Below, one piece after another: positions 2,743 through 29,931 of a stretch of DNA of 32,082 nt. The DNA is taken from positions 1 through 32,082 of the forward strand of contig NW_021829642.1 in NCBI RefSeq assembly GCF_006345805.1, given 5' to 3'. Below the pieces are notes generated by a model. That model did not search any database, was not told the origin of the DNA, and saw only the letters and a list, made by a program, of their open reading frames with translations. How positions within the stretch are numbered: position 1 is the first letter of the stretch; each line of letters begins with the position of its first letter. This DNA comes from Octopus sinensis (lineage: Eukaryota). The translations under genes and the position numbers were made by a program.

Positions 2743-2744
2743 AA

Positions 2745-3655: not shown

Positions 3656-3704
<49 letters not shown>

Positions 3705-3951: not shown

Positions 3952-4020
<69 letters not shown>

Positions 4021-4749: not shown

Positions 4750-4805
<56 letters not shown>

Positions 4806-5620: not shown

Positions 5621-5640
5621 TCAATATTAATTGAAACAAA

Positions 5641-6135: not shown

Positions 6136-6195
6136 CAGTGTTTCTCAAAGCGGAGGCCTATGGGACGGTCGGAAAAGTTGTTTTGAGAAAATTTG
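6136..6195. mobile_element. 60-bp hAT (Charlie-like) mini-MITE relic
   Basis: Left end cagtgtttctcaaa, right end tttgagaaaatttg; 8-bp flanks ggttaaat / gtttaaat (7/8 identical). Confidence 0.55.
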
Positions 6196-6303
6196 GTTTA
6201 AATGTTTTGACAACTCAGCACCGTCCATTGGAAGGGGAGGCGTTTTGCTCGTGTGTATATATATATATATATATATATAGTTATATGTGTGTGTCTGTGC
6301 GTT

Positions 6304-6347
<44 letters not shown>

Positions 6348-7369: not shown

Positions 7370-7505
7370 TTTATTTTATGAACATCGGTGGGATAAAGAT
7401 TTAAATTTGAAAAAAAAATATTTTCTTAACTGGGATTTGAACTCAGAACAGAAATATTTGCAAGGCGTTATATTTCAGACACTAACAACACAACCAATTT
7501 AGCTC
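7370..7505 (-). mobile_element. Highly degenerate SINE type B
   Basis: ttattttatg..., gggatttgaactcagaac and ...ctaac match the reverse complement of type B landmarks. Confidence 0.5.
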
Positions 7506-7699
7506 TAGTAAGTCTTTAGTCTTTAACATTGATTTATATAGTATCTTCGGGATTCTTTTCTTTCTACCGGGGTCCCGACCTTATATCATTTCCGTCTGAC
7601 ACGCTAATGCTTTATCTCTCTACATATAACACATCTTGACACTTCACTAAGAAGGATTCAATCGACTAGCAACATCTAGAATTAACTAACATCGTTCTT

Positions 7700-7713
7700 G
7701 TTTCCTTAGCAAC
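7700..7713. promoter_or_regulatory. RFX X-box-like motif
   Basis: GTTTCC-TT-AGCAAC fits GTNNCY(N0-3)RGYAAC; extra half sites tagcaac and tagtaac nearby. Confidence 0.3.
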
Positions 7714-8182
7714 AGTTTAGTAACTAGTCTTTGCTAATACAAATTGTACTTCATACTTGACGCAGTTACTGCTGTTTCATCAGTGTTACTCGAAGCAGTT
7801 CATAGAAGTGCAGTTGGAAATCAATAAACCGATCTATTACATCGTTGAATTTCCAAGGCAGGACCATTTCGGTCTTTGCCGTAACACTGTGTTTTTATGT
7901 TGGTTTTGTTTTATTTTCTTTCTTTTCTGGGACTTTTTTTTTTTGGTAATAAACAAAACTATTTACTATAATACAAGACAAAATGGAGGTGTTAACCATC
8001 TGAATCTTTAGTAAATAAATCCATGCTGTTCTGATTTCGTTTAGCCGTTTATCTTTTTCTTTCATTTTTTGTCGAAAATATATGATACATGTATAATGAA
8101 CTCATTACAGGGTACGCTGAAACTATGCGGAAACCTGTTTGTTTTACAGAGTATGCGCCTATAACTCTCCTTCCATACATAG

Positions 8183-8580
8183 GCACAGGCCTGGCTCTCA
8201 GGTAAGAAGCTTGGTTCCCAACTTCTTGCCGGCTGGGTTCAGTCTCACTGCATGGCACCCTGGGCAAGCGTCTTCTACTATAGCGTCGGACCGACCAAAG
8301 CCTTGTGAGTGGAATCGATTGACGGAAACTGAAGGAAGCCTGTCCCATATATATTTATGCACGTGTTTTTGAATCTGTGTTAGTCCGCCGTCCACCATTA
8401 TTTAACAACCGATGTTAGTGCGTTTATGTCCCCGTAATCTCGCGGTTCAGCAAAAGAGTCCGATAGAATAAGTACTTGGCTTACAAAGAATAACTCCAGG
8501 GGTTGACTTCTTCGACTAAAACCTTTAAGGTGGTGCTCCAGCATGGCCGCAGTCAAATGACTAAAACGTGTAAAAGAGTA
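8183..8580 (+). mobile_element. Full-length SINE type A
   Basis: Collinear similarity to 4468-5070 from head to the taaaagag tail. Confidence 0.9.
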
Positions 8581-8689
8581 ACAGAATATATATATATTTA
8601 TATTCTTATATGTAGACAGTTCTGTCGACTGGCATTACCAAAATCATACATATATGTGTGTTGTGCACGCACATGTGTGTATGTATGTA

Positions 8690-8705
8690 TGCATATATAT
8701 GTATA

Positions 8706-8736
<31 letters not shown>

Positions 8737-8846
8737 CACACATATATAAATATATACATATATAATATATACATGTATGCATATATACGTACATGTGCAT
8801 GTGCATATATATATATATATACATGTATGCATGTATATGTGTATGC

Positions 8847-8877
<31 letters not shown>

Positions 8878-9020
8878 CATAAATATATATATACATAAAT
8901 ATTTACATATATACATAAATATATATATACATATATATATATTATATATATATATGTGTATATATATATATATATATGTATGTGTGTATGTATGTATATA
9001 TGTATGTATATATATATATG

Positions 9021-9076
<56 letters not shown>

Positions 9077-9083
9077 CACATAT
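8690..9083. repeat. Long interrupted (TA)n microsatellite
   Basis: Directly visible. Confidence 0.95.
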
Positions 9084-9300
9084 AAAGTTAATCCAAACAT
9101 GAAAACACAAAGAGAAAAGAAAAATAACGCGAGGACGTGGAACAAGTATGGTGTTATTGGACGCTCAGGAAAGGAAAGGAAGGAGGACTTAACATTTCGA
9201 GCGGAGCTCCTCTTGAGAAACATTGGAAAAGGAAAATCCAAGGAAGGGAAGACGGAGGAAAAATTCGCCAACGATATACCTAACAAGAAACATAACATGT
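9084..9300 (-). mobile_element. ~210-bp non-autonomous element, Penelope-like pLTR-derived, copy 1
   Basis: Collinear with 29964-30170, same start aaagttaatccaaaca after (TA)n; contains a minimal hammerhead motif on the minus strand. Confidence 0.7.
9187..9221 (-). ncRNA. Minimal type I hammerhead ribozyme, core-mutated
   Basis: Minus strand GTTT CTCAAGA G GAGC TCC GCTC GAAA T GTT AAGT; CUGANGA has G5 changed to C; stem II GAGC/GCTC intact. Confidence 0.55.
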
Positions 9301-9338
9301 ACTGACAGACAGAGAGACAGACAGGCAGGCATGAAGGC

Positions 9339-9445
<107 letters not shown>

Positions 9446-10096
9446 CAGGAAGTATAGTTGTAGTATAGAATCTACACCATTATCTGTCTTCTGTTTCTCG
9501 ACCTGTATTTGCAGACGCAAATGCTTGTGTACGTCTCTCTCTGTGTATGGCTATGCGTTTGTGTAAAGAGATGTGTGTACGTGCTGATGTATGCGTTTGC
9601 CTGTCAGTAACCAACTATCAGTATGTATATCCGTTGAGTGCCAATCTGTTAGCTAGTATGGTGGCAATGGTCGGACCTTGTCGGAAATGTTAGCTTCGCG
9701 CCATATTGTCTGCTTCAGTCAGATTCAAGACAAAATGGATATGTGAGTCACGTGTTGCGATCCATGTTAGCAAATAAAGAAACAGATGTGTAATCATACA
9801 CGGAACACTTGTAGTCTAAAGAAGATGACAGCAATACTGTCCGCTTGTTCTCATCGGTATTTACCGTTGCCGTTGACGTTGTTGTTGTCACTGCAGTAAT
9901 TGTTGTTGTTGATGGTTTTGTTGTTGTCACTATTGTAGTTGTTATTGTCACTACAGTTTTTCGCTGTCATTGCTCCCTTTGTTAAGATTTTATGAATCAT
10001 AATGGACCTTGGAGAGAAGGTATTCCAAGCGTGACCGTCACGAGTTTTTCATGTTTCGAACAGTTATATGATATCACCATCCAATATTGCCTTCCA

Positions 10097-10127
<31 letters not shown>

Positions 10128-10130
10128 ATT

Positions 10131-10161
<31 letters not shown>

Positions 10162-10191
10162 GGATATTTCATTCACCCATCGATATATATA

Positions 10192-10356
10192 TACGATGGG
10201 CTTCTTTCAGTTTCCGTCTATCAAATCCACTCACAAGGACTTGTCGGCCGGAGGCTATAGCAGAAGGCATTTGCCCAACGTGCCACGCAGTGGGACTGAA
10301 CTCGGAACCATGCGGTTCGTAAGCAAGCTACTTACCACACAGCCACGCCTACGCCT
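10192..10356 (-). mobile_element. SINE type A, head half only
   Basis: Reverse complement of the type A head (gggcttctttcagtttccgtct...cttaccacacagccac), ends in (TA)n. Confidence 0.9.
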
Positions 10357-10404
10357 ACATATATAATATATATATATATATAATATTATATATATATAAT
10401 ATAT

Positions 10405-10438
<34 letters not shown>

Positions 10439-10441
10439 GGT

Positions 10442-10486
<45 letters not shown>

Positions 10487-10487
10487 T

Positions 10488-10538
<51 letters not shown>

Positions 10539-10619
10539 AATTATATATATATATGTATATATAAACCTAGTGCGTTATTTCTAGTATTTTCAAAAGCTAC
10601 ATAGAATTGGTGATTGTTA

Positions 10620-11330
10620 GTGCAGGTTAATGTTAGAGTAAATGATAGTGGCTTTGGTGGTGGTGGTGGTGGTGGTGGTGGTGGTGGTGGTGGGAATGGT
10701 ATGTGCAGACAGAAGTAGTTAAGGTGTTGATGGTAGTCTTCGAGGTTGTGGTGGCAGCACTAGTGGTGATGGCGTGCTCAGGTAGTAGCTTTAGTAGTGA
10801 AGCTAGAACTAAGAGTGGTTACAGTGCTGGCGGTGGTGGTGTAGTGTTTATCGTGACAGGTTGTTCTTGCACTAGTAATTTTAGTGGTGATGGTCATAGT
10901 GTTGATACAGGTTATGACTGTAGTAGCGGTGGTGCTGATGATGATATTATGTACAGGTTGTAGCACGTGCAGTAATGAAAGCAGAAGTAAGGACTAATGG
11001 CGTATGCAGCAATAATGGTGGCGTGGCGTAGTTTTAATTGTAGTGGTTGTGGTAGTGTTGTTGTTTTTGGTGTTGGTAGTGGTAACAGCCTCTAGTGGTG
11101 ACAGTACCTATAGTAGTGATGGCATTACTAATAGCGACTAAGTCGGAACGAGCGGTGGCGGCGGTGTGGGTTGTGATGATGGCTTATAATCGTATTAGTT
11201 TTGGTTATAGCGCTGATGATCATGGCGGTCGTAATGGCGGTAACAGAAATGATATTTCTACTTTTGTTGTTGTAGTTGTTTTCGTCTTCGTTGTTTACTC
11301 GTCCGTCATTATTGTCATTGTTAGTTGCTC
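10620..11330. repeat. Degenerate GGT/GTA/GTT trinucleotide low-complexity tract
   Basis: (GGT)n at 10655-10692 decaying into GT-rich triplets. Confidence 0.85.
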
Positions 11331-11507
11331 ATGACTTTAGGGGGTTTGTTTATTCTATATTATTCTCTATTACGATTTTTCTTCCTTTCTTTGTCTGTTT
11401 TGTCTTTCCTTTGATATCGAATTCTAACGTCTGTCTGCAACGTTTCTCTCATTTAGACTTTGGACTTTTTCGTTCGAGGAATCAGACATTTGAGGATTAG
11501 CTCGGTA

Positions 11508-11792
11508 TTTCTGTTTCTCTTTGTTACTTCTCTCTCTCTCTCTCCCTCCCTCTCTCTCTCTCTCTCTCTGTCTATTTATCTATCTATCTCTATCTCTGTC
11601 TCGTACAATCTCTCCCTTTCTCTCTTTCTGTCTGCCTCTTTAGCTCTGCGCTTAATTTTTTGTTAATCACTCATTCTCATTTAATTGTATATATTTCAAT
11701 TGTTTGTTTATTCATACGTTTCGTCTCATTCGATACCCTGACCCCAACGTTTGTTTTGTCCTCTCTTTTTCTCAACCTTATGGTGAATAAAG

Positions 11793-11825
<33 letters not shown>

Positions 11826-12090
11826 GCTGCCCACTCTCTCCGCCTCCTTATCTATTTGCCTATGTCTCTCTCTCTCTGTCTCTCTCTCTCCCGCTTTTTA
11901 TTTTTCCTCCTCTCTCTCTCTCTCTCTCTTTTACTCCATTTTTATCTTATTCTCTGTGTCTCTCACTTCCTGTGACTGTCTCTGTACCTATACATCTCTG
12001 TCTCTCCATCATCTTTTTCTTCTTTGTGTCTCTCCATCTCATCTTCTCTCTCTCTCTCTATCTCATCCTCTCTCTCTCTCCCTCTCTCTC
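11508..12090. repeat. (CT)-rich polypyrimidine low-complexity tract
   Basis: Directly visible. Confidence 0.9.
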
Positions 12091-13128
12091 CAGACAACCA
12101 AATTAAATACTATCTCGGATTCCTTACTGAATCTTTAATTTAACAAAACCATTTCCTTCTTTTCCTTTGTCTTACCAGCGATGTTTTCTACGAATATTGG
12201 TATTTTTTCGCTTTAATTTTTAAATTCCATTCTATTCCTTTCAATAAAATATTATTTACATGACCAACAGACAACGATAACAACAACAATAACAACAATC
12301 AGACAAAGAAACAAAACTGCATATAAACCATAAAAACATTTCTGATCCAAAATATATAAAAATACATAACAGAAATAAGGAGACGACACATCAAATAAAA
12401 TGTTTATATGAATATTCCAATAATCTATATTTTAATAAACAACACAGAAAACATAACATTTACGTGATTAAGAATACAAACAATTTGTTTGTGTGTGTGC
12501 GTGTGCGCACGCATGTATTAATGTTAGCCCACAGCAAAGGACTTTTATTTTCTAAAGAATTAACTCCAAGTGGTCTCTAGTTGAGGAGACCGAAGATCCA
12601 AACCATTCAATCCATGACAATTACATTTGTTTCATCCTTTTTAAAAGAAAATCGGTTATATGCCATAGAAGTAGTATTGAATTAAGATAGTTATTTGTGA
12701 CTTATATCCCTCCCTAACTCCCTCCCTCTCCCTGACACTCCGACCTCTCCCTCCCTCTCTCTCTCTCCTATTCTCTCTTTCTCTTTGTCAATCTAAATAA
12801 ATATATCAAGTGTTCTCTCTGATTATTCATCTCATAACAATCTCTCATATAGACTTACTGTGTTTAACAACATAGCATATATATCGGAGGCAGACGAAAA
12901 TCCTTCCAGAGAAAATAGAAACTGCATTCCTTTTCTGCTGAGTATTTTCATTAGTAAGTACTCAGAACCAACCACATCACAAAAGGAAATCTGTTGCCGC
13001 CGATTAGAATAGCTATTTCTGTATCATGTTTAATATTAGTACATCGTGATGGGCAGACTTACTGCCGTCTTCGTCCGGAGATAATATCCTTTATATTCAT
13101 GCCGTCGATACGGAAAAAAAGGACAAAA

Positions 13129-13545
13129 CAAGCATGGTTGTGTGGTAAGAACTTTGCTGTTCAGGGTTCAGTCCTACTGCGTGTCTCCTTGAGCAAGTGT
13201 CTTATACAATAGCCTTGGTCTAACCAAAATCTTGTGAGTGGATTTGGTAGACGGAAACTGAAAGAAGCCCATCATGTATGTATGTATATATATATATATA
13301 TATATATATGCCTGCATGCGTCTTTGTGCTTGTGTTTGTTTCCCATCAACGCCTGACAAGACAACGGGTGTTAGTGTGTTTATATCCCCGTAATTTAGCA
13401 GTTCGGTAAAAGAGACCAATAAAATAAGTACCAGGCTTTAAAAAATATGTTCTGGGGATCGATTTGTTCAAATCAGAGTCTTCAAGGTGGTGACCCATCA
13501 TGGCTACTATCTAGTGAATGAAACAAGTGAAAGATGAAAGATAAA
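13129..13545 (+). mobile_element. Full-length SINE type A
   Basis: Collinear similarity to the other type A copies; tail gtgaaagatgaaag. Confidence 0.9.
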
Positions 13546-14167
13546 TTATATATTGGGCGTATAAGAAAATGGTCCGAGCAGCGGAATGCTAGACGCGCAG
13601 TTGTTTCTCGTTGGGCTTTTGCCAATCTTATATACTTACAGCCAAACACATGTCAAGAAGAAATCTACCGCCACCGACATAGGAAAACAGTGAACGCACA
13701 ATCACTGGTGTTGTATGTAGCCACCCGGCAGAACATAAATCCCTCATTTGTAACTAAAGCACTGTTTCAATTAAAAAAATCTATTTGTTTATTATATTTA
13801 ATGTTTAAATATCGTTAGAGCAAACTTACGTCTGTCTTCGTCTACTCGTACTCTATCATACTGTGCTTGAAAATATAATGTTTATCGAAAGTTGTTTTTG
13901 CAGCGACATGTCAGAAAGATGGATGCATATCTGCGTCCTTAGGCTTCGTCAGCAGCATGTGCTCACTGCCAACCATAATGCTAAGACGACATCAATCACC
14001 ACTGATGTCTACGTGTGTGTTTGCGCGTGTATTAAGTGTGTATATAGATATTTTCATAATATGGGAACACACACACATTCACACATACACCAACATTATG
14101 AATATAATATGATATGAATATGTGTGTATATATATAGATCGATGTACAAATATATATATATATAATC

Positions 14168-14201
<34 letters not shown>

Positions 14202-14286
14202 ATATTATATATATATATTTATATACACCTATCTATGTATACATATATATCAATGTTTATGCATAGATAGATAGATATCCAGCTAT

Positions 14287-14321
<35 letters not shown>

Positions 14322-14334
14322 CATTGATAGATAT

Positions 14335-14414
<80 letters not shown>

Positions 14415-14906
14415 GCAAACAGAAAGAATGATAGTGAAAAAAGTGAGTGAGAATGCAGCGGGAAAAGAGAAAATGTCCCCTTCTATGTCTCTTCCCATAT
14501 TTAGGATCATAGATTCTGTAGAGTTTGAAATAATTTTGGCTGCTATGTCAAGCATTCTCGCCTCACTATGTAGACATCGCACCGCCTTCTCTTTCAGTTG
14601 ACCAAGATCACCCCGCAACGACATTCCCTCCAGCCGCTGCCACCGTCACCTCACTGGACAAGTCTTAGTATCATAATGGATTCCATATGGATCCATTGTT
14701 TTCTTATTTTGTTCCGTATTTGTTTTGTACTTTTTACTCCTCATTTCTTTTTTATAACTACGAAATAATTCATATATTCAAAATGTTGGACAATATACAG
14801 AATAATACTAAATTCTGTCTCGTGGTTGATTGTCATTTGCAGACAAGTATCTTCTCGTTTTCTCTTTAGGAAGAAAAAAAAGAACATCTCCTGTTTAAAA
14901 CATATT

Positions 14907-15228
14907 GATATGCCTCGCAACACATTTAGTCTTACTGCTAAAGAAATGGTAAAAAAAAAGAAGAAAAAACGAAAATAAAGATGACAAAATTACATTCTTT
15001 ATAAACCTTAAGTATGCTTTCACATACAGAAAACTTATTTTTATATATAATGCATGTCGCATATAATGGAGCTTTCGTCGTATAATGATGTTGCCTGGTT
15101 GAATATGGCGACGGTGAATATAATGGCGTTTTCACTCATAAAAGAACTTTATTACTCTGTTCCATTGGCTGCTAAAACTTGAAGCTATAATACCTGCTAT
15201 AGGCCACATTATATTATGTTTCAAAAAT
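14907..15228 (+). repeat. Diverged local direct duplication, copy 1
   Basis: Collinear with 16079-16388; identical 27-mer tataaaccttaagtatgctttcacata at 15000-15026 and 16164-16190. Confidence 0.9.
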
Positions 15229-15231
15229 CTC

Positions 15232-15412
15232 GCAAGCAATGCTGTTTGATAAAGAAGTACGCTTCGCAAACACGTGGTTTCGGATTCCGTACCACTGCGG
15301 TGCGGCACCCTGAGCACATGCGTTCTTTTCTATTATAGTACCGAAGCTCCGGTCGATCAATGCTTTGTGAGAGAATTTGATAGACGGAAACTGTGAGAAG
15401 GCAGTTGTATAT
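15232..15412 (+). mobile_element. Degenerate SINE type A head
   Basis: aagaagtacgcttc...ggcaccctgagca...tagacggaaactg landmarks. Confidence 0.7.
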
Positions 15413-15463
15413 ACAGGTGAGGACAAAAGTAGATGTACAGTTGCTCAATATGAGCAGAATGTT

Positions 15464-15610
15464 TAAGGCGGCGAATTAGCAAGAGTTCTGAGTTCAAATT
15501 CCTCTGAGATCGACTTTGCCTTTCATTCTTTCAAGATCGATAAAATAAGTAACACTTGAGTGCTGGCGTTGGTGTAAACGTCTTATACCTCCCCCTGAAA
15601 CTACTACCCA
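15464..15610 (+). mobile_element. Internally deleted SINE type B
   Basis: aaggcggcga head and tgagttcaaattcc...tcgactttgcctttcat core. Confidence 0.8.
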
Positions 15611-15838
15611 TTTCGGTGGAATGTTATTTTCATTTCTCTTTTAGGATAAGAATTCTATGCAATTAGGAATAATTATTTTATTAGAGATATAATTAATTAA
15701 AAAGAACATGCTAAAAGAAAGATATTAGAGAAATGAAAAGAACATTCTACAAATCAAGGAACTGTGTACCTGCTTTTACACCTGGACCCTGTGTTTGTGT
15801 TGTGTGCGCGTGTTTCTGAGAGAGAGAGTGTGTGTGTG

Positions 15839-15871
<33 letters not shown>

Positions 15872-16078
15872 TCCTCAACAACGTAAAAACTTGGCAATTG
15901 GTGTTGCTGTATCTACATCCCAGTAAAATGGACGATTCGGTAAAAAGTGACCATCTGCATAAATGGCAGACATTAAAACAAGGACAGGCGTCGACTTGTC
16001 TCACTAAACTCTTCAAGCCGGCGACCCAGCTCGACCGCAGTCCTGTAAGTGAAGCAAGTACAAAATAAAGAGATAAAC

Positions 16079-16388
16079 GATATGCGTCAACCACACGTTT
16101 AGCCTTCCTGCTTAAGAAATGAAAAAAAGGAAACGAAAATAAAGAACAAAGACTACCTTTATATATAAACCTTAAGTATGCTTTCACATAGAGAAACTTG
16201 TTTTTATATATAATGCCTGTTATATAATGGAGTTTTCGTCTTCGGCTATAATAGTGTTCGCTGGTTGAATATATAGCAACGGTGAATATAATGGTGTTGT
16301 CATATAAAATTATTTTATTATTCTGTTTCATTGGCAGCTATGATTTGGAGATATGATGCACTCTATGAGCGACATTATGCTTTAAAAG
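16079..16388 (+). repeat. Diverged local direct duplication, copy 2
   Basis: Collinear with 14907-15228. Confidence 0.9.
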
Positions 16389-16699
16389 CCCACAAATAAA
16401 ACCGTAAGAAGTAACCGCTTTAAATATAAACTGAAAGAGTTATTTGCCAGCCATGCCTAAAGATGGGAAAAAGACGTTTTAATGCAGCCGTTTTGGGTCG
16501 ACGCTGATTTATTTGACCTCAAACTCTTTCATTTTTTTCTCGTCCTCCACCAACTCTCTCACTTTGCCTCTCTCTCTCTCTCTCTCTCTCGTTCTTTCAC
16601 CCCTCTCTACCTATTCTTCTCTTTCTTTTTATCTGTGTGATCACCCTAGTTATATTCGTATGAGGGCATAATGTTTCTCACAAACTCTCTCTCTTTCTC

Positions 16700-16740
<41 letters not shown>

Positions 16741-17109
16741 TCTCTCTCTCTCTATCCATTTGTACGTGTATATTTGTACTCGTCTTTGTGAGTGCGTTTC
16801 TGGGTGTTTATCTCCGGTGCCAAATGATACTATCGCCAAAGCTGGCTCCAAGTCCAGTCAGATGAGTCAAATATTAGCGTCCAAACAGCTGCACCTAATA
16901 AACTCATCCCGTCAACGAGAGTTTTCTTTCAGCTGTTAAATGGCGCCTGAATACAGGGAAATAAAGATAAGTTCCATTGCTCTGTAAACACTTGGTAAAT
17001 TTTAAAGCGACGAACGGCAGAGTTATTGGCGTGTTGGATAGAATGCCTCCATGAGGTCAAATTTGCTTTTAATATTTTCTGTGTTTTTAGACAAATTACA
17101 AGGTACCAG

Positions 17110-17340
17110 TCCTAGGCGATGCTTTGATGGAACATTAAGACTCTTCGAAGAGTTGTGTATTTTCTGATGCCAACATCTACGAAAACATGAGCTCCGAACT
17201 GCACCGGCCCAAGTCGGTACCTTGGAGAGGAGAGACTAGCACACATGGACAACCACAACACTTTCTCGCAAACATCTGATCTGGGCCTTCCTATGAATGC
17301 GCAGGTGGATGACCCATCTTCGCAGACAATGACTCTACAA
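17110..17340 (+). mobile_element. Frameshifted relic of an RTE-like LINE ORF2 C-terminus
   Basis: Across frames: KTLRRVV, QHLRKHELRT, LAHMDNH, KHLIW, HLR in the order expected for LRRI..W.QHI.N.EL...GHLARMD...K.L.W...GRP.LRW. Confidence 0.45.
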
Positions 17341-17777
17341 TGGCAAAAATTAAAGAAAATTTATTATTGGTATGTTCTAGCAATCATTGTTTAGCCTCGA
17401 GTTAGCTACGACAAGGGAGAATTACTAAGAGCAAAACATTTTAGTTTTCATTTGTATTCATTTTATTAATATTCTTATTTATTTATGCGACATTTTTACT
17501 AAGCACAAATATAAATCATTTTCTAATTGGCTTGGATACAGCAATCCTGAATGGATTCAGGATCCCGATGCAAATGAAGACTGCCAACATCATTTTGAAA
17601 CAACATTATTCAATATATTGTGTACTCATGTGATTGTGTTTATTTTAGACTATCGATAATCCTGGGTCAAGATCGGAATACTGAGGCCAATAAGCATAAA
17701 TACATTTAATACAAACATACACACACACATATGTATACTTAATTACATATAAGTTTGTGTATGTACATATATATGTA

Positions 17778-17814
<37 letters not shown>

Positions 17815-18131
17815 CAAATCTATATATATTCACTGTAGAAACATAGGTACGTACATGCATACGTATAAATACAAACACGCAGAGAGAATTAAATTTTGCT
17901 GGTTATGGTGTTGGTTTTGTTAGTATATGGTATGGATTGTATGGTGCTGCAGTATATTCAAGTGTGTATAACTATGCAAATACGTAAATGAATCCATTGT
18001 CTACAGAAGGTTTATAATATCGAACGTTGTGCGGGATTATGAAATATTTCTGTAACGAATACTTACAACATTTATTGCATAACAGACAGAATTACAATTC
18101 ATCCATATATACACGCATGCATTATATGTAT

Positions 18132-18230
<99 letters not shown>

Positions 18231-19098
18231 TACATATACCTAATATTGGAATATATATGTATTGATAAATATATATGCATACATATATGTACACTTAAAT
18301 ATTTATGCATATATATATAGTGAGAGAGGGAAAGAGAGAAAGATAGACAGAGCGAGATAGATAGATAGATAGATAGACAGATAGATAGATGTATTGATTG
18401 GTTGACAGACGGACAAATACACAGATATATGTATAACGCCTATGATTAAATATGCACTCATACTTGCTCACCCGATGCAATAATGTCACTATGTGAATTA
18501 GTTTGTGTTTTTCGACAACATTCTTATTTATTTTGTTTACACAAGAATGCATGTACACGTGCACGCGCGCGCAGACACATATGAAAATATATTAAATAAC
18601 ATACAAGAGGATTACTAGATTTCTTGAATTGCTTTCCACTTCCACTGCAGAAGATTGGTATTATCTTCCACTACGAAGATCAAGATATTTCAGACATCAA
18701 GAATAATGCACGCTTCACATGACTTGAAGTAAAACAAAGATTATCTGAAGACGAGTATGCACATGTTTTAGCCTTAACTGACATCATTAGCTCAGCGGTT
18801 TTCCGACCTTAACTTCGGGTGGCCTAAACCAAACATATATGCACTTATGAAGTCTAAGTACTTGGTACAAATGTTAGGCAAATGAGCCAAGAGGATTAGC
18901 TCAGAGGGGCGAGTTGCAGGTTTTGATAACAAATACGAGAAAGACTATTCTAAATAACATGCAAGAATTTTTTTCTATTTACTGAAATGTTCTTTCCTGT
19001 CGTCTATAATTGTGTGGGTACGTGCGTGTGCGAGTGTCAAAATATGTGTACAGTTATGCACCTATATGTATGTATGTGTACATAATCTATAGATTTAT

Positions 19099-19520
19099 CA
19101 GGCGTGGCCTTTTGGTAAGAAGCTTGCTTCCTAATCATTTGCTCTGTATTCTGTCCCACTAGGTGGCTCCTAGGTAGAGGCGCGTGACTTTGTGGTTAGG
19201 GTGTCAGCATCATGATCGTAAGATTGTGGTTTCGATTCCTGGACCGGGTGACGCGTTGTGTTCTTGAACAAACCACTTCAGTTCACTTTGCTCCAGTCCA
19301 CTCAGCTGGCAAAAATGAGTAACGCTGCGACGGACTGGCGTCCCGTCCAGCAGGGGAACATATACGCCATAGAAACCGGGAAACGGGGCCCATGAGCCTG
19401 ACTAGGCTTTAAAAGGACGAAAAAATGAGAATATGAGCTAACTCTTGATACTTTGGCCACGTTTCTTTTAACAAAGCCTTGGGTCTTGATAGGTAGGGGA
19501 ACTGAAAAACAGCCTGCCAT
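19099..19520 (+). mobile_element. SINE type A head interrupted by a type C SINE
   Basis: Type A head at 19099-19177 resumes at ~19470-19520 (acaaagccttg...gaactgaaa). Confidence 0.65.
19178..19420 (+). mobile_element. tRNA-derived CORE-like SINE type C
   Basis: A-box gtgactttgtggttagg, B-box gtttcgattcc, CORE-like gttgtgttcttgaacaaaccactt, then ctgcgacggactggcgtcccgtccag; antisense copy at 27085-27270. Confidence 0.8.
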
Positions 19521-19594
19521 ATACACACATATATACATACGTACATACATTTATGTGTGAGTGCGAGAGAGAGAGTGTGTGAGTGCGTGTGTAT

Positions 19595-19812
19595 GTTGTT
19601 GTTGTTGTTGTTGTTGTTTTAAGCAACAAGACGGGTAAGGGTGATTAGGTGATGGTCTAGGGCTTAGGGGCGGGAGACCCCAGACCTTGGAAAAAAAAAC
19701 TTTGGTTGTCTTGCAGTCAAGGGCTCTTCGTTGACGCCCGACACCACTGGGAGGTAGCCCTCGAAGTCGCTGGAAATGGAGATCTCCAGGTCAAAATTCT
19801 TGAACGGCTCTG
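19595..19812 (-). other. GC-rich coding-like fragment with (AAC)n tail, embedded in (CA)n; origin unknown (retroelement 3' end or exon)
   Basis: Minus frame EPFKNFDLEISISSDFEGYLPVVSGVNEEPL with most codons ending in G/C, then a pyrimidine-rich stretch and (AAC)n. Confidence 0.35.
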
Positions 19813-19817
19813 TGTGA

Positions 19818-19881
<64 letters not shown>

Positions 19882-21489
19882 TGTGTGTGTGTGTGAGCGT
19901 GTCAAGCCGCGTGTCGTTTTCTTTCTGGCTGAAGATTACGAGGAGAAATTGATAATTTGGATGTTCGATTAATCTAAAATCTCGACTTGTCTTCGTCTCC
20001 ATCGGCGGAGGTTACATTCAATTCTATCATTAATGTGGAACTATTTGAATCTGTCAACGTATGTGTCATGGCAAAGATGTGCATCTTTGCTTGTATGTGT
20101 ATCTGTTCGAGACTGCTTCGCCTGTGCGTTTGTATGCATGTACTTGTGTGTGGGGATGAGTGGGAATGTGTGTGGGTGTGGGTGTGTCTGTGGGTGTTCT
20201 TGTGTTTTGTACGTGAATACGTGATAAAACTAGCTGAATCAGCTGTAATAATGTCAATTCATTGCACCTGAGAATCAAATCTGTTTCAGATTTTTCGAAG
20301 AATAAGATTGTAAATCATATTTAGCGTTACACACACACAAACACACAGACACAAACACAGACATACCCCTACAGACACGGATACACTCATACATGAAAAC
20401 ATGCACGCGTATTTTAACACTTGTATAGACATACAGGTACAGACACACATAAACATACGCATACGAATACTTCTTTTCGTTATCTTGACACTAACGACTA
20501 ACCTAATTTACTGGCAAGGAGTTCACTAAGTCTCACAGAGTGTGTTTGTGTGTTATTGCGTGTGTGTGTCTTCGTGTCTGCGTGTGTGTGTGTGTGTGTG
20601 CCATGATGAACAAGATTATAGATACGCCATTTTAAACCGCGATATTCATTCACTCTCTTCCTCATTCTTTTACGAAAAGAGATAAGAAAATTCCGAGGAA
20701 CTATTCTAGATATTTCTGTGGAGAAATGCCGATATTCTATTATTGTTCTTCTTAAGAAAAAGTAATATATATGCATGCATATGTATGTACGTATGTATTT
20801 AGTTATGTTTATGTACGTATGATGTATATGTATATATATATATTATATATAGATATATATTATATATATATATATATTAATGTGGTTGTGTGTGTGTGTG
20901 TGTATACATATATAATTTATATATACATATATAAATACATATAAATTGCATATCTATATGTGTGCATGTATGTATATATATATATATATATATAAGTATA
21001 TATGTATATTTGTATGTTGTAATATATATATATATATATATATAATATATATATATGTATTTATGTATGTACGTATGTATGCATGTATGTATGTATGTAT
21101 GTACGTATGTATGCATGTATGTATGTATGCATGTATGTATGTATGCATGTATGTATGCGTTTAAGTATAAATAATTAAATACAAAAATAATTATTATTAT
21201 CGCTGTAGCTACTTTGCTGCAGTCGTCGTTATCATAATCAGCATCGTTGTCATCGTCGTCGCCATCATCATCATCAGCAACAGTACCCTTATTATCATCA
21301 TTGTTATTACCATCATTGTTATTATTGTCATTGTTATTATTCGAATTATTATTATTGTTGTTCTTGTTGTACTTTTTCATTAAGATTTTCCGCACTAGAT
21401 ATAGTGAACTTTTCTACTTCATATTCTGGTAGAATCGTTTAGAAGAAAATACGGTTCGCGTAATTATTTCCAATTCCTTACACTCAGCT

Positions 21490-21757
21490 TATAATCATGG
21501 GGTCATGAGTTCGATACGTAGCAACGTATTGTGACCCTCAGCAACACACTTTATTTCACATTACTCCAGTCCACGTCTTTTAAAATGGCCAGCCACCCCA
21601 TACCCTTGAGTTCAAATTCCGCCGAGGTCGACTTTGCCTTTCATCCTTTCGGGATCGATAAATTAAGTACCAGTTACGCACTGGGGGTCGATGTAATCGA
21701 CTTAATCCGTTTGTCAGTACTTCTTTGTCCCCTCTATGTTTAGCCCCTTGTGGGTAA
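21490..21757 (+). mobile_element. Degenerate type C head (21490-21575) followed by a well-preserved 5'-truncated type B SINE (21605-21757)
   Basis: gagttcgatac...cactttatttcacattactccagtccac; tgagttcaaattccgccgaggtcgactttgcc...tagccccttgtggg. Confidence 0.8.
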
Positions 21758-21761
21758 TAAT

Positions 21762-22020
21762 GAAACAGATTCTCCTTTTTGGGTTTCATCGAATTTTTCA
21801 AATTCCAATTGCAAAGGAAAATGAAGATGGAGACTTCCTGCGTTCCAACAAATTTGTTGAAAGATGGGTGAGGGTGAGGAGCATGGTGCGAAATGAAGTA
21901 TTCTGAGCATGCAACCTGTAGATTGAACGAAAACAACAAAAAGAGACCGGTGGTAGTGATCAGGCTGACGATGTTTTTTTTTTGTCTTGTTTTGTATTTT
22001 TATTTTATTGTCTACGGGTA
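21762..22020 (+). mobile_element. 3' end relic of a Tx1/L1-clade LINE (ORF2 C-terminus and 3' UTR)
   Basis: FIEFFKFQLQRKMKME, frameshift, then SNKFVERWVRVRSMVR, stop, T-rich UTR; F...W terminal motif typical of L1/Tx1 ORF2 (assignment from memory). Confidence 0.5.
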
Positions 22021-22064
22021 GCCATTGGGGGAATACTTCCACTTTTAGCGAATTATTCATTGCT

Positions 22065-22375
22065 CAATCGCTTTTCATCCCTTCGGGATCGATGAAATGG
22101 GCATTAGTTGTGTAGAGGCGTCGATGTCATTGACTTACCCAATCCCTCTAAACTGCTGGCTTTATACCAAAAATTTGTGCCAAATTCTTGTTGTTGTTGT
22201 TGTTAAGGTGGAGAGCTGGTAGAATCGTTAGTAAGCCGGGTAAATGCTTAGCAGTATTTCGTCCGTCTTTACATTCTGAGTTCGAAAGGCACCCAGGTTG
22301 GCTAGGAAAGCAGTCCAGCAGGGAGATCAATAAAATCGACTTGCCCCTCCGCCACCAAAAATTCAGGAGTACAAA
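22065..22375 (+). mobile_element. Two SINE type B pieces (3' fragment 22065-22185; copy 22205-22375)
   Basis: ttttcatcccttcgggatcgat; aaggtggagagctggtagaatcgttag...ctgagttcgaa. Confidence 0.75.
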
Positions 22376-22404
22376 TAACAGACTGGATTATTATTATTAT
22401 CAGT

Positions 22405-22424
22405 ATTAGTAGTAGTAGTAGTAA

Positions 22425-22458
<34 letters not shown>

Positions 22459-22466
22459 TAGTAGTT

Positions 22467-22525
<59 letters not shown>
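22405..22525. repeat. (TAG)n microsatellite
   Basis: Directly visible. Confidence 0.95.
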
Positions 22526-22526
<1 letters not shown>

Positions 22527-22932
22527 AAACAGTATCAGTAGCAATATTGCATATTTCTGGTTTACTTCAATTAACGTTTACCAAATCAAGATGTAGATGT
22601 TTCTTCCACGAACGACGACAGAGTGAATCACACAGGATGCAGTGTTCCAGTGTGTGAGTGTGAGCGTGTGTATGCTTGTGAGTGGGCGTATATATATATA
22701 TATATATATGCGTATGTGTGTGTGTGTGTGTGTGTGTGCGTATGTATTTGAACGTATGCGTGTCTCAAACTGTGTATCTGCGCGTGTGTATTCGTAGGAA
22801 GCTTTCCTAAATTCAATTACTATTTCCTTATCGCACCAGTGTCATATAAATCCCATGTCGATAATACGACAAACATAGGTAGATACGTTTTTTTTCTTTA
22901 TATCTCTATGTCTGCGGGTGTATTTGTGTCTG

Positions 22933-22974
<42 letters not shown>

Positions 22975-23312
22975 TATATAAATATATATGTATATGTATA
23001 TGTATATATATATACGTGTATATATATATACATATATATGTATATATATGTGTGTGTGTGGTGCATGTATGTATGTATGTATATGTACATGAATACAAAT
23101 GCTCAGAAACAAAACAGTGTATGTTCTGCGTGTTAGACACGATACGTTTTCATTCGGTAATCTATTTCTAGTATAACAGATCTAATTTGATTATTTCAAT
23201 TACTAAGACTCATACCATCGCCAGACTCAAGCAAAAGGAAATATAACATTGTTCCGACCCACATGTCGTCTACCAAACCATCGAATCTCTATCTCACGAT
23301 CGTCTTCCATAT

Positions 23313-23355
23313 TTACCTCTTGATAAAGTACAAGCACCCGAAACGTCGATGGTGA
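23313..23355 (+). ncRNA. Degenerate minimal hammerhead-like relic
   Basis: TTACCTC TTGATAA AGTAC AA GCACCC GAAA C GTC GATGGTGA; stem I pairs with one bulge, GAAAC-GTC intact, core differs from CUGAUGA by two transitions. Confidence 0.35.
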
Positions 23356-23436
23356 TTTGTATTTTTCCCTTTTAGATATAAAACTTCTCTCTTTCCTTTC
23401 TTTGGTTTTGTGTGTGTGTGTGTGTGTGTGTGTTTG

Positions 23437-23469
<33 letters not shown>

Positions 23470-24418
23470 CTGTGTGCGCGCGCGTGTGTGTGTGTGTGTG
23501 TGTGTGTGTTCTTTTGTGTGAAAGCGTGAGTGTGTATGAAAGCGTGGTTTCGATTCTCAGACCAGGAAGTACATGGTGTTCTGAAGCAAGGACTTCTTAT
23601 CATTTGCTCTTCATCCATTTTAACGCCTGATGAGGAGCACGCCTTGCATCTGAACAAAGGAAGTTGGTTTTGATTGAGGGGGTGACTTGAAGTACAGGAC
23701 AAACATGTGATTACAATAAAAGAAAGTCATCTGTGCAAGTTGTTCGCAAAAACATTGCGGCCCCCTCAAGTGTTGCCTACGAGAGCACTTACGTATAAAG
23801 TTTTCAGGCCCTGATAGAATCAGATATTCAAATAGTAGAAGAAAAACCAAGAAAGAGTCGGGGATGGCGCACAAGTACACTCACCTTTTGTACTGACATA
23901 TGCGTAACGTACTTACTAAAGTAAATACAGATTTATCATTCTAGTTATTCATAAATTCACAAGTAGCTGAGAGAAATCATAACGTCTCTTCAAAGTCACA
24001 CAGGGGTTCACACATGACACGTACTCCACAGTCGACTATCGGCACCAGAACCAAGCGTATAGAAGGTACGCACACAAACACACACAAACACACACACACG
24101 CATACAAACACACATATATAAACAAATACGGCAAATACGTACATGTATACGCAGTTTAAAACACTTCTTTTTATGAATAAACCATTAAACCCAGATTTCA
24201 TACAAATCATTTTGACACACTATTCTGCCATTGACCTCCATCTTACCATTTCCTACAACACTTTCTCTGCCGCATTCCATTCTTTTAACATTCTCCGCAT
24301 TTCCCCTTAAATTTTAGAAGTTATTTCGTCTGATAATGCCAGATGTAGTTTTATTTCCTCTGTATGAAACGTTCGTGTGATTTTCCTGCTCTTTTTGGGT
24401 GTATATATATATATATAT

Positions 24419-24518
<100 letters not shown>

Positions 24519-24893
24519 TGTGTGTGTGTTTGTGTGTGTGGTGTGTGTGTGTGTTATATATATATATATATATTATATATAATAATGTATGTATGTATTG
24601 CTTATCTTTCATCTAAAGATGTTTTGATAGGTTTATTGGCAAACCTGCCCGAGTATTTTTGTTCATCTTTATGTATTATATGTTGAGCTTTTACATTATT
24701 AATGTGGTTGTTGTTGTCACTGTTGTGTCAGTTTTTTGTTGTTGTTGTTTGGTATTGTTGAATTAGAGGACTTCTTACTGTATATTTGACTGGCTGTTAC
24801 TATACACGCATATACTCTCATTTATGTATATACCTACGTATACACACACACCACACACACACACACACACACATATTATATATATATATATAT

Positions 24894-24937
<44 letters not shown>

Positions 24938-25033
24938 TAGATAGAATAGATAGATAGATAGATACATGTGTGAGTTTGTGTGAATATATATATAATTATA
25001 TATATATATATATGATATGTATGAATATATGAA

Positions 25034-25064
<31 letters not shown>

Positions 25065-25095
25065 GGTATATATATATGAATATATATACATATAT

Positions 25096-25145
<50 letters not shown>

Positions 25146-26029
25146 TGAAATGTATTTACCATAATTTAAAACAAATATATTGCGTAACTCCAAGTTTCAG
25201 CGTCGCCAGTCATGAAAATAGAGGTGATCGCCATCAGCTGTATAATCGCTGATATCATCTTCGAGATCATCATGATGAGCAGCATCATCATTATCGTCAT
25301 CAGCATCACCACCAGCACCAGCACCAGCACCGGCAGCAGAGTCGTCATCTTCCTCATCGTCACCATCGTTATAGTCGTCGTCGCCGTATCGACGTCGGTG
25401 TCGTTGTCGCCATTGTGATAGCTTGAAAGTCATTAAACGTAAAACGGATGACTTCTATGATTGTCTTCATTCAAATTTCTTTTCACATAACCAAAAGCAA
25501 TAGAGGGATAGTGTATAAACACATACACACATTCACACACTGTACACGCGGTAATGACTATTCGCACGTCCTCATATTAAACCACACACATACATACGTG
25601 CACGTACACTCGCACACTCGAAGACACACACAGGAGCTTGATATATGAGCAGTTATCAACACGCAGACAGATATTAAAAGACACACGCACGCACACAGAC
25701 AGACAACAGCACACACGCATACACACACACACAATAGTACATACACATATACGTCCAAGAAATACACACATATGCATACAAGTCCACGAACACACTCTCT
25801 CCGTCATCAACGTTTATATTGAAACTCCCAGATACGATATACTTATACTAGTAGCAATAGTTACTCACACAGACACACACACACACACATACATACACAC
25901 ACATACACACAGACACACACGTACACACACTATCACACACAGAGGGTAAAACATACATACAGGAAAGTACACGTACTCAAACTCAAATCAATTTATACTG
26001 AGATAATACAATTATATTTAAGAGAATGT

Positions 26030-26335
26030 GAAGACGCATGATTTAGTGGTTATGGGTATTCGGCTCATTATCTTAAGGTCATGGGTTCAATTAGCAGCAA
26101 GAAACTTTACTTCACATTGCTTCAATTCACTCACCCGGTAAAAATGAGAAGTACCTGTAATTTCAAAGGGCGCAGCTTTGCCGCATTCTGTGTCACACTG
26201 CATCTATCTTAGATCTACGTTAAGGGGGCGCCTGTTTATGAAATGCTCAGCCGCTTGCACGTTAATATCACGAGCAGGCAGTTCCGTTGATCGCATCAAC
26301 CGGAACCCTCGTCGACGTAACCGACAGAATGCCAG
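26030..26335 (+). mobile_element. tRNA-derived SINE with type C-like head and a different 3' body
   Basis: gcatgatttagtggtta A-box, gggttcaatt B-box, actttacttcacattgct...aaaaatgag shared with 19178-19420. Confidence 0.65.
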
Positions 26336-27084
26336 TTGTTTAAGAAATCAGTGATGACTCTCCAAAGTATTCTCGAAAGGTCATCAACCCTAATAAAACA
26401 CAAACTATAATAACTTGGCTATAATATTAATATGATTACTGCTCCCAGCTACTTGTGAATGCTGCTGTGTTTGTACCTCCCCTTGGTGCCTATCTAATTA
26501 TGGACATATCACAATACCGATGATGCAACGTTGGTTTTGGGACTGGCTTATAAAACCGTTGGTCCTCCAGGGCGAGCAGCGTTTGATCAACCATTTGCAA
26601 TTGTTTTCTGAGTTTTTTTTTTATCCCAGTTTAATTAACCGATGTTTTTCATCTGGTTTTCATTGTTGCTGCAGTGTTGGTTGTGGCATTAACTTGAAAA
26701 CTTTTTATGCTGCAAGAACCATCAGGGCTTAATTAACGAAAATGTTTGTTTTTTTTTCTTTTTGTTTAAATTTTTTTCCTTTTAATTAGCAATTCGGTGT
26801 TCGGCTTTTAATGTTGGCATCAATTAATTTGATCCATTCTATATTGCAAAGAGATTATACAACGTCCGAAGGAATGACTTTCTTTAGAAGTATGATAAAT
26901 TCTTTGAGACTATGCTCCGAATCAGATCCCTACTATTCTATATTCATGTGAGGGTTGCGTATTATAGAAACGTGCCTATCAGGGTTCTAGCCATCACAAA
27001 ATACCTGATGCATTGCAACCCCTAAAACAGCGGTTGGGTTACCACCTTTGTCTACCCTATAGGATAAAAGACAGAGTCAAGAAC

Positions 27085-27270
27085 CTCCCCGACTCTTATA
27101 GACTCATAAGGCCGGTTTTCCTGTTTACGTGGTGTATGTATTCCCCAATTGGACGGAAAGCCAGTCCGTCACGGTATTACACATTGTTGCTACCAAAGTA
27201 AACTCGAGAAACGTGAACTACACTTAAGGTATCATGAGTCCAAAACCTTATCCACAAAGCCACGCGCCAC
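27085..27270 (-). mobile_element. Degenerate SINE type C
   Basis: tggacgg...ccagtccgtcac and ccacaaagccacgcgcc are reverse complements of 19178-19420 landmarks. Confidence 0.75.
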
Positions 27271-27616
27271 ATTATACGAAAAAAGGAGCGTATTTTGTTG
27301 CCGTCATTAGGATCCTACAAAGATTTCCTGCAAACATCTACCTATGTACGTGCAGACTAGCAATCGCCTCTATTACTCCCATCAATCAGTAAAGGTGTAG
27401 AGGGATCTGCAAAGGCGGCAACCCTCGTTAACTGATTGACGTAATTAAATGTAGAAAGCAAGATGTCAATGAACCGTGTTTTTTTAAATCTTTCATACAT
27501 AATATCACAAATGAGAGAAGCCCAGAGAAGGGTCATACACCCTGTTCTTTTTGTCTCTCTCTCTCACACACAATACTTTAGTTCACCCCGCCCCCAAAAA
27601 AATCCCCCCTCAAATT

Positions 27617-27658
27617 ATAATAATAATAATAATAATAATTATAATAATAATAATGATA

Positions 27659-27713
<55 letters not shown>

Positions 27714-27883
27714 TTTTCTGAAAAAATGACATTATAAACCTTTGAAGAGATTCTGCATCATCTAAATCAAAAGAAGCAAAACAAAGAACTCATAGGAATA
27801 TATATATATATGTGAGTCTGTGTGTGTATGTATATACATATACATAGGGAGAGAAGTGAGATCAACAGATAGATAGATAGATC

Positions 27884-27919
<36 letters not shown>

Positions 27920-28281
27920 TATAGATCGATAGATAGATATTCGAATAGATATAAGTACTAAGATATATATACATATATATATATGTATGTATGTATGTAT
28001 GTACGTATCTATATAGATATATGATTATATATGCATATATATTATATAATATATATATGTAAATATATACGCATATATTTCCGTATATGTCTCTGAGTAT
28101 TTATATTTATGTGTATATATATATATATATATTATATATTTTATTATACGATTTTATTTTACGTTTTTTAAATATTTCCGTTATATATATACATATACAT
28201 ATACATATCTATATGTATATTATATATATAATATATATATATATATATAATACAGATATATGTATACATATCTATATGTAT

Positions 28282-28314
<33 letters not shown>

Positions 28315-28382
28315 TATATATTTATTTATATATACGTATAGAACATATACATATTATATGTATATATAGATATATATATATA

Positions 28383-28427
<45 letters not shown>

Positions 28428-28446
28428 TATATGTATACAATCTATA

Positions 28447-28493
<47 letters not shown>

Positions 28494-28520
28494 ATTATAT
28501 ATAATATATATATATATTAT
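27617..28520. repeat. (AAT)n, (GATA)n and long interrupted (TA)n tracts
   Basis: Directly visible. Confidence 0.95.
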
Positions 28521-28697
28521 GTAAGATCTTATTACATACATTGTAGTGTAAAAGCCAGTCAGCTGAAAGTGTTATCGAAAAGTCAATCAGTATAAAACAC
28601 ATCATTGATAAAAGACGACTTGCTTTCCCTTTTTTTCTTATTCTTTTTTGCATCGAGAATTTTCTTTACTTTTGGTTTGTTTTTAATCATTTTTTCC

Positions 28698-28751
28698 ACT
28701 CACCTGAAAGTAGAAAGAAAAAAGAGAAAAGAAAGAAAAATGATTCGTTAG
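28698..28751 (-). promoter_or_regulatory. Candidate recursive splice site (ratchet point), AG|GT junction between 28704 and 28703
   Basis: Minus strand CTAAC gaatca TTTTTCTTTCTTTTCTCTTTTTTTCTTTCTACTTT CAG|GTGAGT; stops in all three frames within 21 nt downstream. Confidence 0.6.
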
Positions 28752-29931
28752 ATGTTTCGTTGTAGCTTAAAAAATCAATAATAGAAGTTATAGACAATTA
28801 TAATAAATGACGCGGTCTGAAAAGAAAAAAAAACATATACCACATGTTATAATCATATATATATACATATATACACATTAGAATCACATGTATATATATA
28901 CACAGATATATATATATATATATATATAAACGTATATATACATACATATATATATGTTATATATACATATACATATCTCATTTCTATATACGTGTATATG
29001 TGTGAGTATATACATACATTGTGTGTGAGGCGGCGAGCGCGTTTGTGGATGTACGTATCTATGTATATATATATGAGGTGTATGTGTCTATGCTTTTGTA
29101 TGTTGTTCTCGATGTCGTTTAGTGCTCGTCAGTGCGTTATTAGTTTGCCAGATATAATGTAATTTCATTATACCTTTGCTCGTATGCATGGTTTAATCAG
29201 TCTCTTTCACACACTGTCTCTCGTTTCTCTTTTTCTGTCTCTTCCTGTGAAGATTCGTTGGAAAGTCGCCAACACAGGTTAATGAGGACACGCAATCAGA
29301 AACTACCCCATAGCAAGTGGTTCCTTTATGTCGCTTTGACTTCACAACACGCTTATAGAACTCATACGATCCAACATCCAATTTAGACACTTTATAAGCT
29401 TTCCTTTACACAGGGATTATACAAATGAATAAAAGTCGATGTTTCATCTGAGATCCTCCCTCTTTCACAGCTTATCCTTTTGGTTCCAGAACTGCGATTT
29501 AATGCATTTAAGGTTGTATAAGAACAGGGAGTTCCGGAATATTTCTCCTATATGCTACGCTAAATAGTCTACTGTGTCTCCCAGTTTGCACTGACTCTCT
29601 CGCCCTCCCACTTCATGCATATATATATAAAGAGCATTTCAATAGACGCACATGGGTCTATTGATATGGTCTTCCCATAATTAACAGGAATCTTACTGAA
29701 GAGCCAGCCTGAGTAAAGGAATATTATTTTTATTACTGAATTTGGCGAAACTGCAGTATAAGAAAAGCTAAGTTTGTAAAAGTTTTTAATTTTCATCTCA
29801 CTAAATTTATCCAGCTATTGTGTATCTAGTGCACTCTTCGCCTTGAATGTAATGATATATGTATAATATATGGCGTGTACTGGTACACCGGCGATTATAA
29901 TTAATTTTATTGTATCGCATTTAACTTTGTT

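Follow-up and report, generated by a model that had tools for sequence, protein, structure and literature searches.

The window analysed here is the whole of an octopus contig, 32,082 bases long, and its minus strand carries a putative recursive splice site (Table 1; a slash within a motif marks the point of splicing). Read in the direction of transcription, a CTAAC branch-point motif, the second A of which lies 44 nt from the AG, is followed by a run of 29 pure pyrimidines (28740-28712), one A and CTTT, giving a tract of 34 nt in total, and then by CAG directly abutting GTGAGT. All three reading frames past the AG meet a stop, at nt 2-4, 15-17 and 19-21. The initial annotation, made from the letters alone, had described these elements correctly on the minus strand: the branch point and its distance, the near-pure pyrimidine tract of about 34 nt, the abutment of CAG and donor, and the stops within 21 nt in every frame. 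Its statement that the tract is not a microsatellite agrees with Tandem Repeats Finder, which listed no array over this sequence. Strong 3′ and 5′ splice motifs abutting at AG/GT, the hallmark of a recursive site, are found here.

Three YAG/GTRAG junctions are present in the window, and only the one at this site is preceded by a strong tract (19 pyrimidines in 20, against 10 and 7 at the other two). From the 17 acceptor-like sites and 36 donor hexamers of the window, a post-hoc estimate gives an expectation of 0.0095 per window for an acceptor-like site with an abutting GTRAGT. The 311-bp stretch containing the site is matched once in the genome (G000, 2.72 Gb).

Table 1. Features of the recursive splice site, its exon and intron, and the paired candidate sites. 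Positions are those of the window unless prefixed with G000.
Feature	Position	Strand	Basis or remark
End of first intron segment, at least 40.5 kb including 37.1 kb on contig C9032	28704..32082	-	Contig order taken from the junction
Second acceptor-like CAG	28817..28819	-	Sequence; bypassed by the X18 junction
Predicted branch point CTAAC, branch A at 28748	28747..28751	-	Sequence; same CTAAC in DNA of organism E
Polypyrimidine tract, 34 nt with one purine	28707..28740	-	Sequence; DNA contigs of organisms B and D reach 28727, that of E 28723
3′ splice site CAG, used	28704..28706	-	Exon 1 joined behind CAG in the X18 contig
Putative recursive donor GTGAGT; CAG/GTGAGT after step 1	28698..28703	-	Sequence and U1 duplex; predicted use
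Cryptic exon (RS-exon), 164 nt, non-coding	28540..28703	-	Contigs of 4/4 presumed RNA runs; X20 circle
In-frame TGA after phase-1 exon 1	28687..28689	-	Frame from P0001/P0002; predicted NMD trigger
Downstream donor AAT/GTATGT, weak	28534..28539	-	X20 back-splice joint; no difference listed in organism E (28523-28585)
Start of second intron segment, at least 28.5 kb	1..28539	-	No host-protein exon found
Same-strand pair of candidate sites	G000:C21:5088090 and 5138718	+	Candidate exons of 40 and 39 nt, ending CAG/GTAA
Same-strand pair of candidate sites	G000:C8:57541090 and 57678798	-	Strict pattern

The use of the site was studied in assembled contigs from sequencing runs, in which depth is flat along each contig. 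None of the 24 listed runs is on record as RNA; five were guessed to be RNA, of which four, drawn from three studies, were compared. All five contig records obtained from the four presumed RNA runs fall within 28538-28706, downstream of the AG. The contigs from runs X9 and X18 (one study; mean depths 30 and 58, values that cannot be ranked against the main mRNA) stop matching the window at 28706 and continue with 25 extra letters each. The 25 letters of X18 had a single match in G000, with no mismatches, on contig C9032 and directly before a CAG/GTAATG donor, while the reversed control gave no match. The junction letters were read in X18 only, X9 having an overhang of equal length in the same study. 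Both sides of the junction share the letters CAGGT, and loose ends near the pyrimidine tract are often false in this contig comparison; the latter concern is answered because the 25 letters match exactly, once, and at the end of an exon. The DNA run X6, which shares the two allele marks of X18 (a substitution at 28586 and 10 letters inserted at 28619), continues through the pyrimidine tract. A contig that joins GT-AG-consistent sites on two separate contigs most plausibly represents a splice product, and the 3′ splice site is used, with exon 1 joined to 28703. The junction between an upstream exon and 28703, which the initial annotation had named as the thing to look for, was found in this way as a contig junction. 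The 25 letters of X18 and the five shared ones add up to 30, the usual contig overlap, which suggests that the assembly forks here, towards unspliced RNA or a different site starting with GT.

The exon on C9032 encodes MSLSTQTHFFALFISCWLLLLHP plus one base, and corresponds to the N-terminal residues (23/23) of P0001 and P0002, two predicted Octopus vulgaris proteins; it is a signal-peptide exon. The match suggests that G000 belongs to an octopus closely related to O. vulgaris. Both proteins carry the UniRef label 'Protein quiver'. Against Pfam the host protein reached 21.1 bits with UPAR_LY6_2 (cut-off 31.5) and 15 bits with QVR (cut-off 27.3), and in the protein alignment its signal peptide, the spacing of its cysteines and its hydrophobic tail agree by eye with the Ly6/uPAR type. 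The Ly6/quiver name would accordingly be a label for the host and not an established orthology to fly quiver. Six of six aligned proteins, comprising P0001, P0002 and four homologues, one of them from Argonauta, continue beyond exon 1 with P-V/A-S/N-G/A-I/L-R-C and no insertion. The uninterrupted P-V/A-S/N-G/A in these six predicted proteins implies a coding mRNA from which the 164-nt exon is absent, and the sequences fit an intron of phase 1 after exon 1.

Host exons from the second onward were not found in G000 using two protein queries and two degenerate patterns, nor on either contig. Within the window, tblastn with the host protein gave no match better than E 2.7, and Pfam gave no match for any of the 131 filtered minus-strand ORFs, nor for the 60 longest among the 149 filtered plus-strand ORFs. 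If C9032 and the window are colinear, the intron spans at least 69 kb, divided by the site into at least 40.5 kb upstream and 28.7 kb downstream; what the contigs have in common is limited to repeat-like matches of up to 420 bases. The site is therefore likely to sit in a giant first intron of a minus-strand gene, as had been proposed from the letters, with the upstream exon spliced to 28703 and with a contig order that rests on this one junction.

Some further features of the host gene were observed. The isoforms P0001 and P0002 part after residue 108, and the shorter one is without the last cysteines and the hydrophobic tail; it resembles a gene model that reads through an intron. The start codon of the host gene is preceded (L002:1568-2000, minus strand) by a long stretch of CAG, AAC and AGT triplet repeats, open in frame for more than 130 codons without an ATG. 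At C9032:34856 (minus strand), 2.2 kb into the same intron, a weaker acceptor-like site is followed by GTGAAA in a CT-rich region, which may be due to chance.

The best donor within 200 nt of the site is AAT/GTATGT at 28540/28539, and it delimits an exon of 164 nt beginning at the putative recursive donor. This exon measures 174 nt on another allele and 196 nt in organism F, and since the three lengths span all three phases it is non-coding. Exon 1 followed by the cryptic exon reads P-G-E-W-K-K-stop, with the stop five codons in and 147 nt before the exon end. A 50-nt rule for NMD has been described (PMC6110456), and the included exon is a predicted NMD substrate. In simple U1 pairing (not MaxEnt) the regenerated donor scored 8.5 against 6 for the exon's own donor, and the energies of the duplex with the U1 5′ end were -13.3 kcal/mol for the regenerated donor, -3.2 kcal/mol for the exon's own and -8.3 kcal/mol for that of exon 1. 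The GC content is 29.9% in the cryptic exon compared with 43.1% in coding exon 1. Its 5′ half is 72% purine, against 31-59% at the 25 other candidate sites described below, and such a purine-rich stretch may favour exon inclusion. A hairpin between the tract and the purine-rich part of the exon (28610-28755, minus strand), which would place AG/GU in its loop, is no better than in shuffled sequences and not significant (32/200 and 29/200 shuffles).

Run X20, from organism F, yielded a single record of 226 nt at depth 20, the first and last 30 letters of which both lie on 28554-28583. The joint links the end of the exon to its start, giving a closed circle of 196 nt that uses exactly this donor and this acceptor. 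The simplest reading of the circle is back-splicing, tandem duplication in organism F being the other possibility. A lariat junction was ruled out as the source of the joint, because T is the 5′ letter and the position coincides exactly with a conserved, canonical GT donor. The downstream donor AAT/GTATGT is used in at least one organism. A circle needs an acceptor that is still unspliced, and so some transcripts must leave the recursive route. The initial description of the site as a zero-length exon thus holds for its AG/GT structure and fails for a bare zero-length exon, given that a 164-nt exon starts at that point.

It was also observed that, translated in frame 0, the first nine bases past the AG (28695-28703, minus strand) give V-S-G, three residues found after exon 1 in the host protein as well. 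This is either a coincidence or a trace of a copy of the start of exon 2; a phase-1 junction avoids that frame, and no donor follows.

Conservation was compared in DNA of related organisms. A single contig of organism E (record 5) covers 28523-28723, and relative to the window all of its eight substitutions (8/8) and all 17 gap letters (17/17) lie in 28586-28689, and the 97 nt flanking the two splice sites are free of both. The loose end of this contig past 28723 reads CTAAC before a T-rich tract, and no difference in GTGAGT was listed for organisms D and E. Judged from these alignments, the splice signals and the branch point are kept and the middle of the exon drifts, a pattern that rests on one informative relative (E), organism D being near-identical. 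In the kind of cross-species comparison suggested by the initial annotation, the AG/GT and branch point are kept in one related organism. As a separate observation, the 3′ part of the exon (28523-28616, minus strand) has hardly changed in organisms E and F, with one difference from the window listed in E. The conserved part would exceed the needs of a donor, and it may hold sites for splicing regulators.

Recursive splicing through an RS-exon is probably the main route at this site. In the proposed mechanism, U2/U2AF on the CTAAC, pyrimidine tract and CAG, together with U1 bound at the weak donor lying 164 nt further on, would define the exon. Exon 1 would then be joined to 28703 from its CAG/GTAATG donor, with removal of at least 40.5 kb, the step seen as a junction. 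The regenerated CAG/GTGAGT would in turn outcompete AAT/GTATGT and join exon 1 to exon 2, leading to the normal protein. Two side products are envisaged, one in which use of the weak donor would leave the stop five codons in and lead to predicted NMD, and one in which the exon would be back-spliced to the circle, as represented by the circular contig of one related organism.

The step-1 junction fits a recursive intermediate and the 5′ junction of an included cassette exon alike, and the depths of the two junction contigs, which are not at trace level, count against the recursive route. Poison (NMD) cassette exons with an early stop are known, as are single-exon circRNAs from skipped exons, formed by back-splicing between the exon's own canonical sites. 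It could be that the exon is of this kind, being alternatively spliced as a whole so that NMD tunes the output, with GTGAGT held but rarely used, for example through masking by the exon junction complex. The early stop, which precedes the exon end by more than 50 nt, speaks for such an exon, as do the use of the downstream donor in the circle, the depths just mentioned, the purine-rich 5′ half and the roughly 60 nt before the downstream donor that are unchanged in organism E; masking of such donors by the exon junction complex is moreover known (PMC6224609). However, a perfect and conserved donor at +1 and the excess of such sites across the genome would be unexpected, the exon's own donor is far weaker than the regenerated one, and, unlike in poison cassette exons, the body of the octopus exon is not ultraconserved. 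A poison exon is for these reasons considered an unlikely main explanation, although the poison-exon and recursive models can coexist.

For X9 and X18 the contigs stop at 28546 and 28554 with no additional joint, and AATAAA occurs at 28326, 28158 and 28145, as might be expected if transcripts spliced to 28703 were polyadenylated in or after the exon and the gene were truncated by an alternative last exon. These contig ends are uninformative, however, since the DNA run X6 breaks at 28564, and because of that break they also cannot separate intron read-through from inclusion. With no poly(A) loose end listed, and with a conserved and used donor at 28540/28539 that a last exon would render superfluous, this reading appears very improbable. 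It is similarly hard to credit that the exon is kept mainly to make a circular RNA of 164-196 nt, the Ly6 gene being a mere host transcript: the closed circular contig is indeed the only record from X20, but a circle was obtained in one of the four runs and the exon middle drifts, the exon folds no better than its shuffles (z +1.21), and the search for a structured RNA or snoRNA in it returned seven Rfam matches, all far below their gathering scores. The initial annotation had also allowed for an ordinary non-coding exon of 113 nt (28816-28704), bounded by the acceptor at 28817 and the donor at 28703. Its acceptor-like sequence is present as claimed, but the X18 junction goes from exon 1 to 28703 and not to 28816; no contig of the four presumed RNA runs lies over 28707-28850, a gap that carries no weight against the 113-nt exon. 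A chance motif is opposed by the low expectation per window and by the conservation of the motif, and that the site is either this ordinary exon or such a chance motif seems extremely unlikely. Recursive splicing through the RS-exon is accordingly retained as the preferred reading.

A strict pattern of tract, CAG and GTRAGT was matched 25 times in G000, against 6, 1 and 2 matches when the donor was permuted in three ways and 4 when the pattern was reversed (p 4e-9), with counts that may be lower bounds; the genome-wide excess of such AG/GTRAGT starts is about 8-fold. The site in the window misses the strict pattern by one purine and is not among the 25, which are motif-based candidates. A downstream donor scoring at least 7 within 20-300 nt was present at 15/25 sites as opposed to 32/173 control windows (p 1.6e-6), and a CTRAY branch motif at 9/25 as opposed to 9.7% of 1065 windows (p 3.6e-4), enrichments that would equally be expected of ordinary short exons starting with GTRAGT. 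The best donor lay within 100 nt at 15 of the 25 sites. At each of the 15 well-scoring sites the downstream donor scores lower than the site's own, a result partly built into the pattern. Four of the 15 candidate exons are multiples of three and two of these 15 are also open, which is chance level and no proof against coding.

In two same-strand pairs the sites are separated by 51 and 138 kb, where 0.006 and 0.015 such pairs were expected, and the candidate exons between paired sites gave no Pfam match. Among 117 candidate ORFs around the two pairs, two matched Pfam, both as LINE-type endonuclease/reverse transcriptase, and no host gene was identified from them. The LINE-type endonuclease and reverse transcriptase ORFs were noted at L060:4364-6376 (minus strand), about 5 kb downstream of the C8:57541090 site. 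The 25 loci (L014-L038), with donors enriched 33-75 nt downstream, are candidate octopus ratchet points by their motifs.

A broader reading, put forward tentatively and with more doubt than confidence, is that the site would act as a three-way switch between recursive removal, NMD-coupled inclusion and circular RNA, that it would belong to an octopus-wide class of RS-exons extending the mechanism to molluscs, and that the output of the Ly6/quiver gene would be set in this manner. The Ly6/quiver-type product may modulate ion channels or receptors.

Vertebrate RS-exons are known from long neural genes, for example CADM2 (PMC6224609, PMC6110456), and were reportedly described by Sibley in 2015. 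The RS-exon model is set out in PMC8605326 and PMC6224609, Drosophila ratchet points with cryptic RS-exons are given for Ubx, kuz and Bx (PMC8605326, PMC6110457), and a survey of recursive splicing takes in deuterostomes from sea urchin to human, Drosophila and yeast (PMC6224609). The octopus site is like those of Drosophila in its tandem acceptor and donor, its long first intron, its weaker downstream donor and the junction from the upstream exon to the site (PMC8605326, PMC6110457). Conserved splice signals together with a drifting, out-of-frame exon content are likewise found in the fly (PMC8605326), as are many sites per genome, some of them in same-strand pairs (PMC8605326, PMC6110457). 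Unlike in Drosophila, the exon has 164 nt rather than about 50 nt, it is visible in ordinary assemblies and gives a back-spliced circle, the intron segments are at least 40 and 28 kb compared with 9-15 kb in flies, and the animal is a mollusc.

With vertebrate RS-exons the octopus exon shares a partial donor at the exon start that is completed by the upstream CAG, and a competition between donors (PMC6224609, PMC6110456), as well as a premature stop lying over 50 nt ahead of the junction and a low-GC exon placed after a GC-richer one (PMC6110456); unlike them, it is hosted by a gene for a small Ly6/uPAR-type protein. The further strict candidates in the octopus, at least 25, are nearer to the fly number than to the 9-10 fully cryptic human sites (PMC6224609, PMC6110456).

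A literature search by titles, with subscription literature mostly outside it, found no paper on recursive splicing or ratchet points in octopus, cephalopods, molluscs, Lophotrochozoa or squid, in keeping with the earlier remark that the process is not known to have been described in cephalopods; in a further search by titles, none of the papers listed was on circles from RS-exons. A survey of octopus RNA reports low circRNA levels, and the word 'recursive' is absent from its main text (PMC9699675). The mechanism was already known, and the lineage appears to be new. Given one junction-supported site and 25 mapped candidates, pan-bilaterian RS-exon splicing becomes testable with existing octopus total RNA-seq, and a circle from a cryptic RS-exon would provide a stable means of following exon definition at these sites.

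As to the remaining content of the window, SINE-like interspersed repeat copies were noted at 4470-5066, 8235-8597, 13159-13545 and 30945-31346, among others, and also on C9032. Low-complexity sequence makes up about a third of the window.
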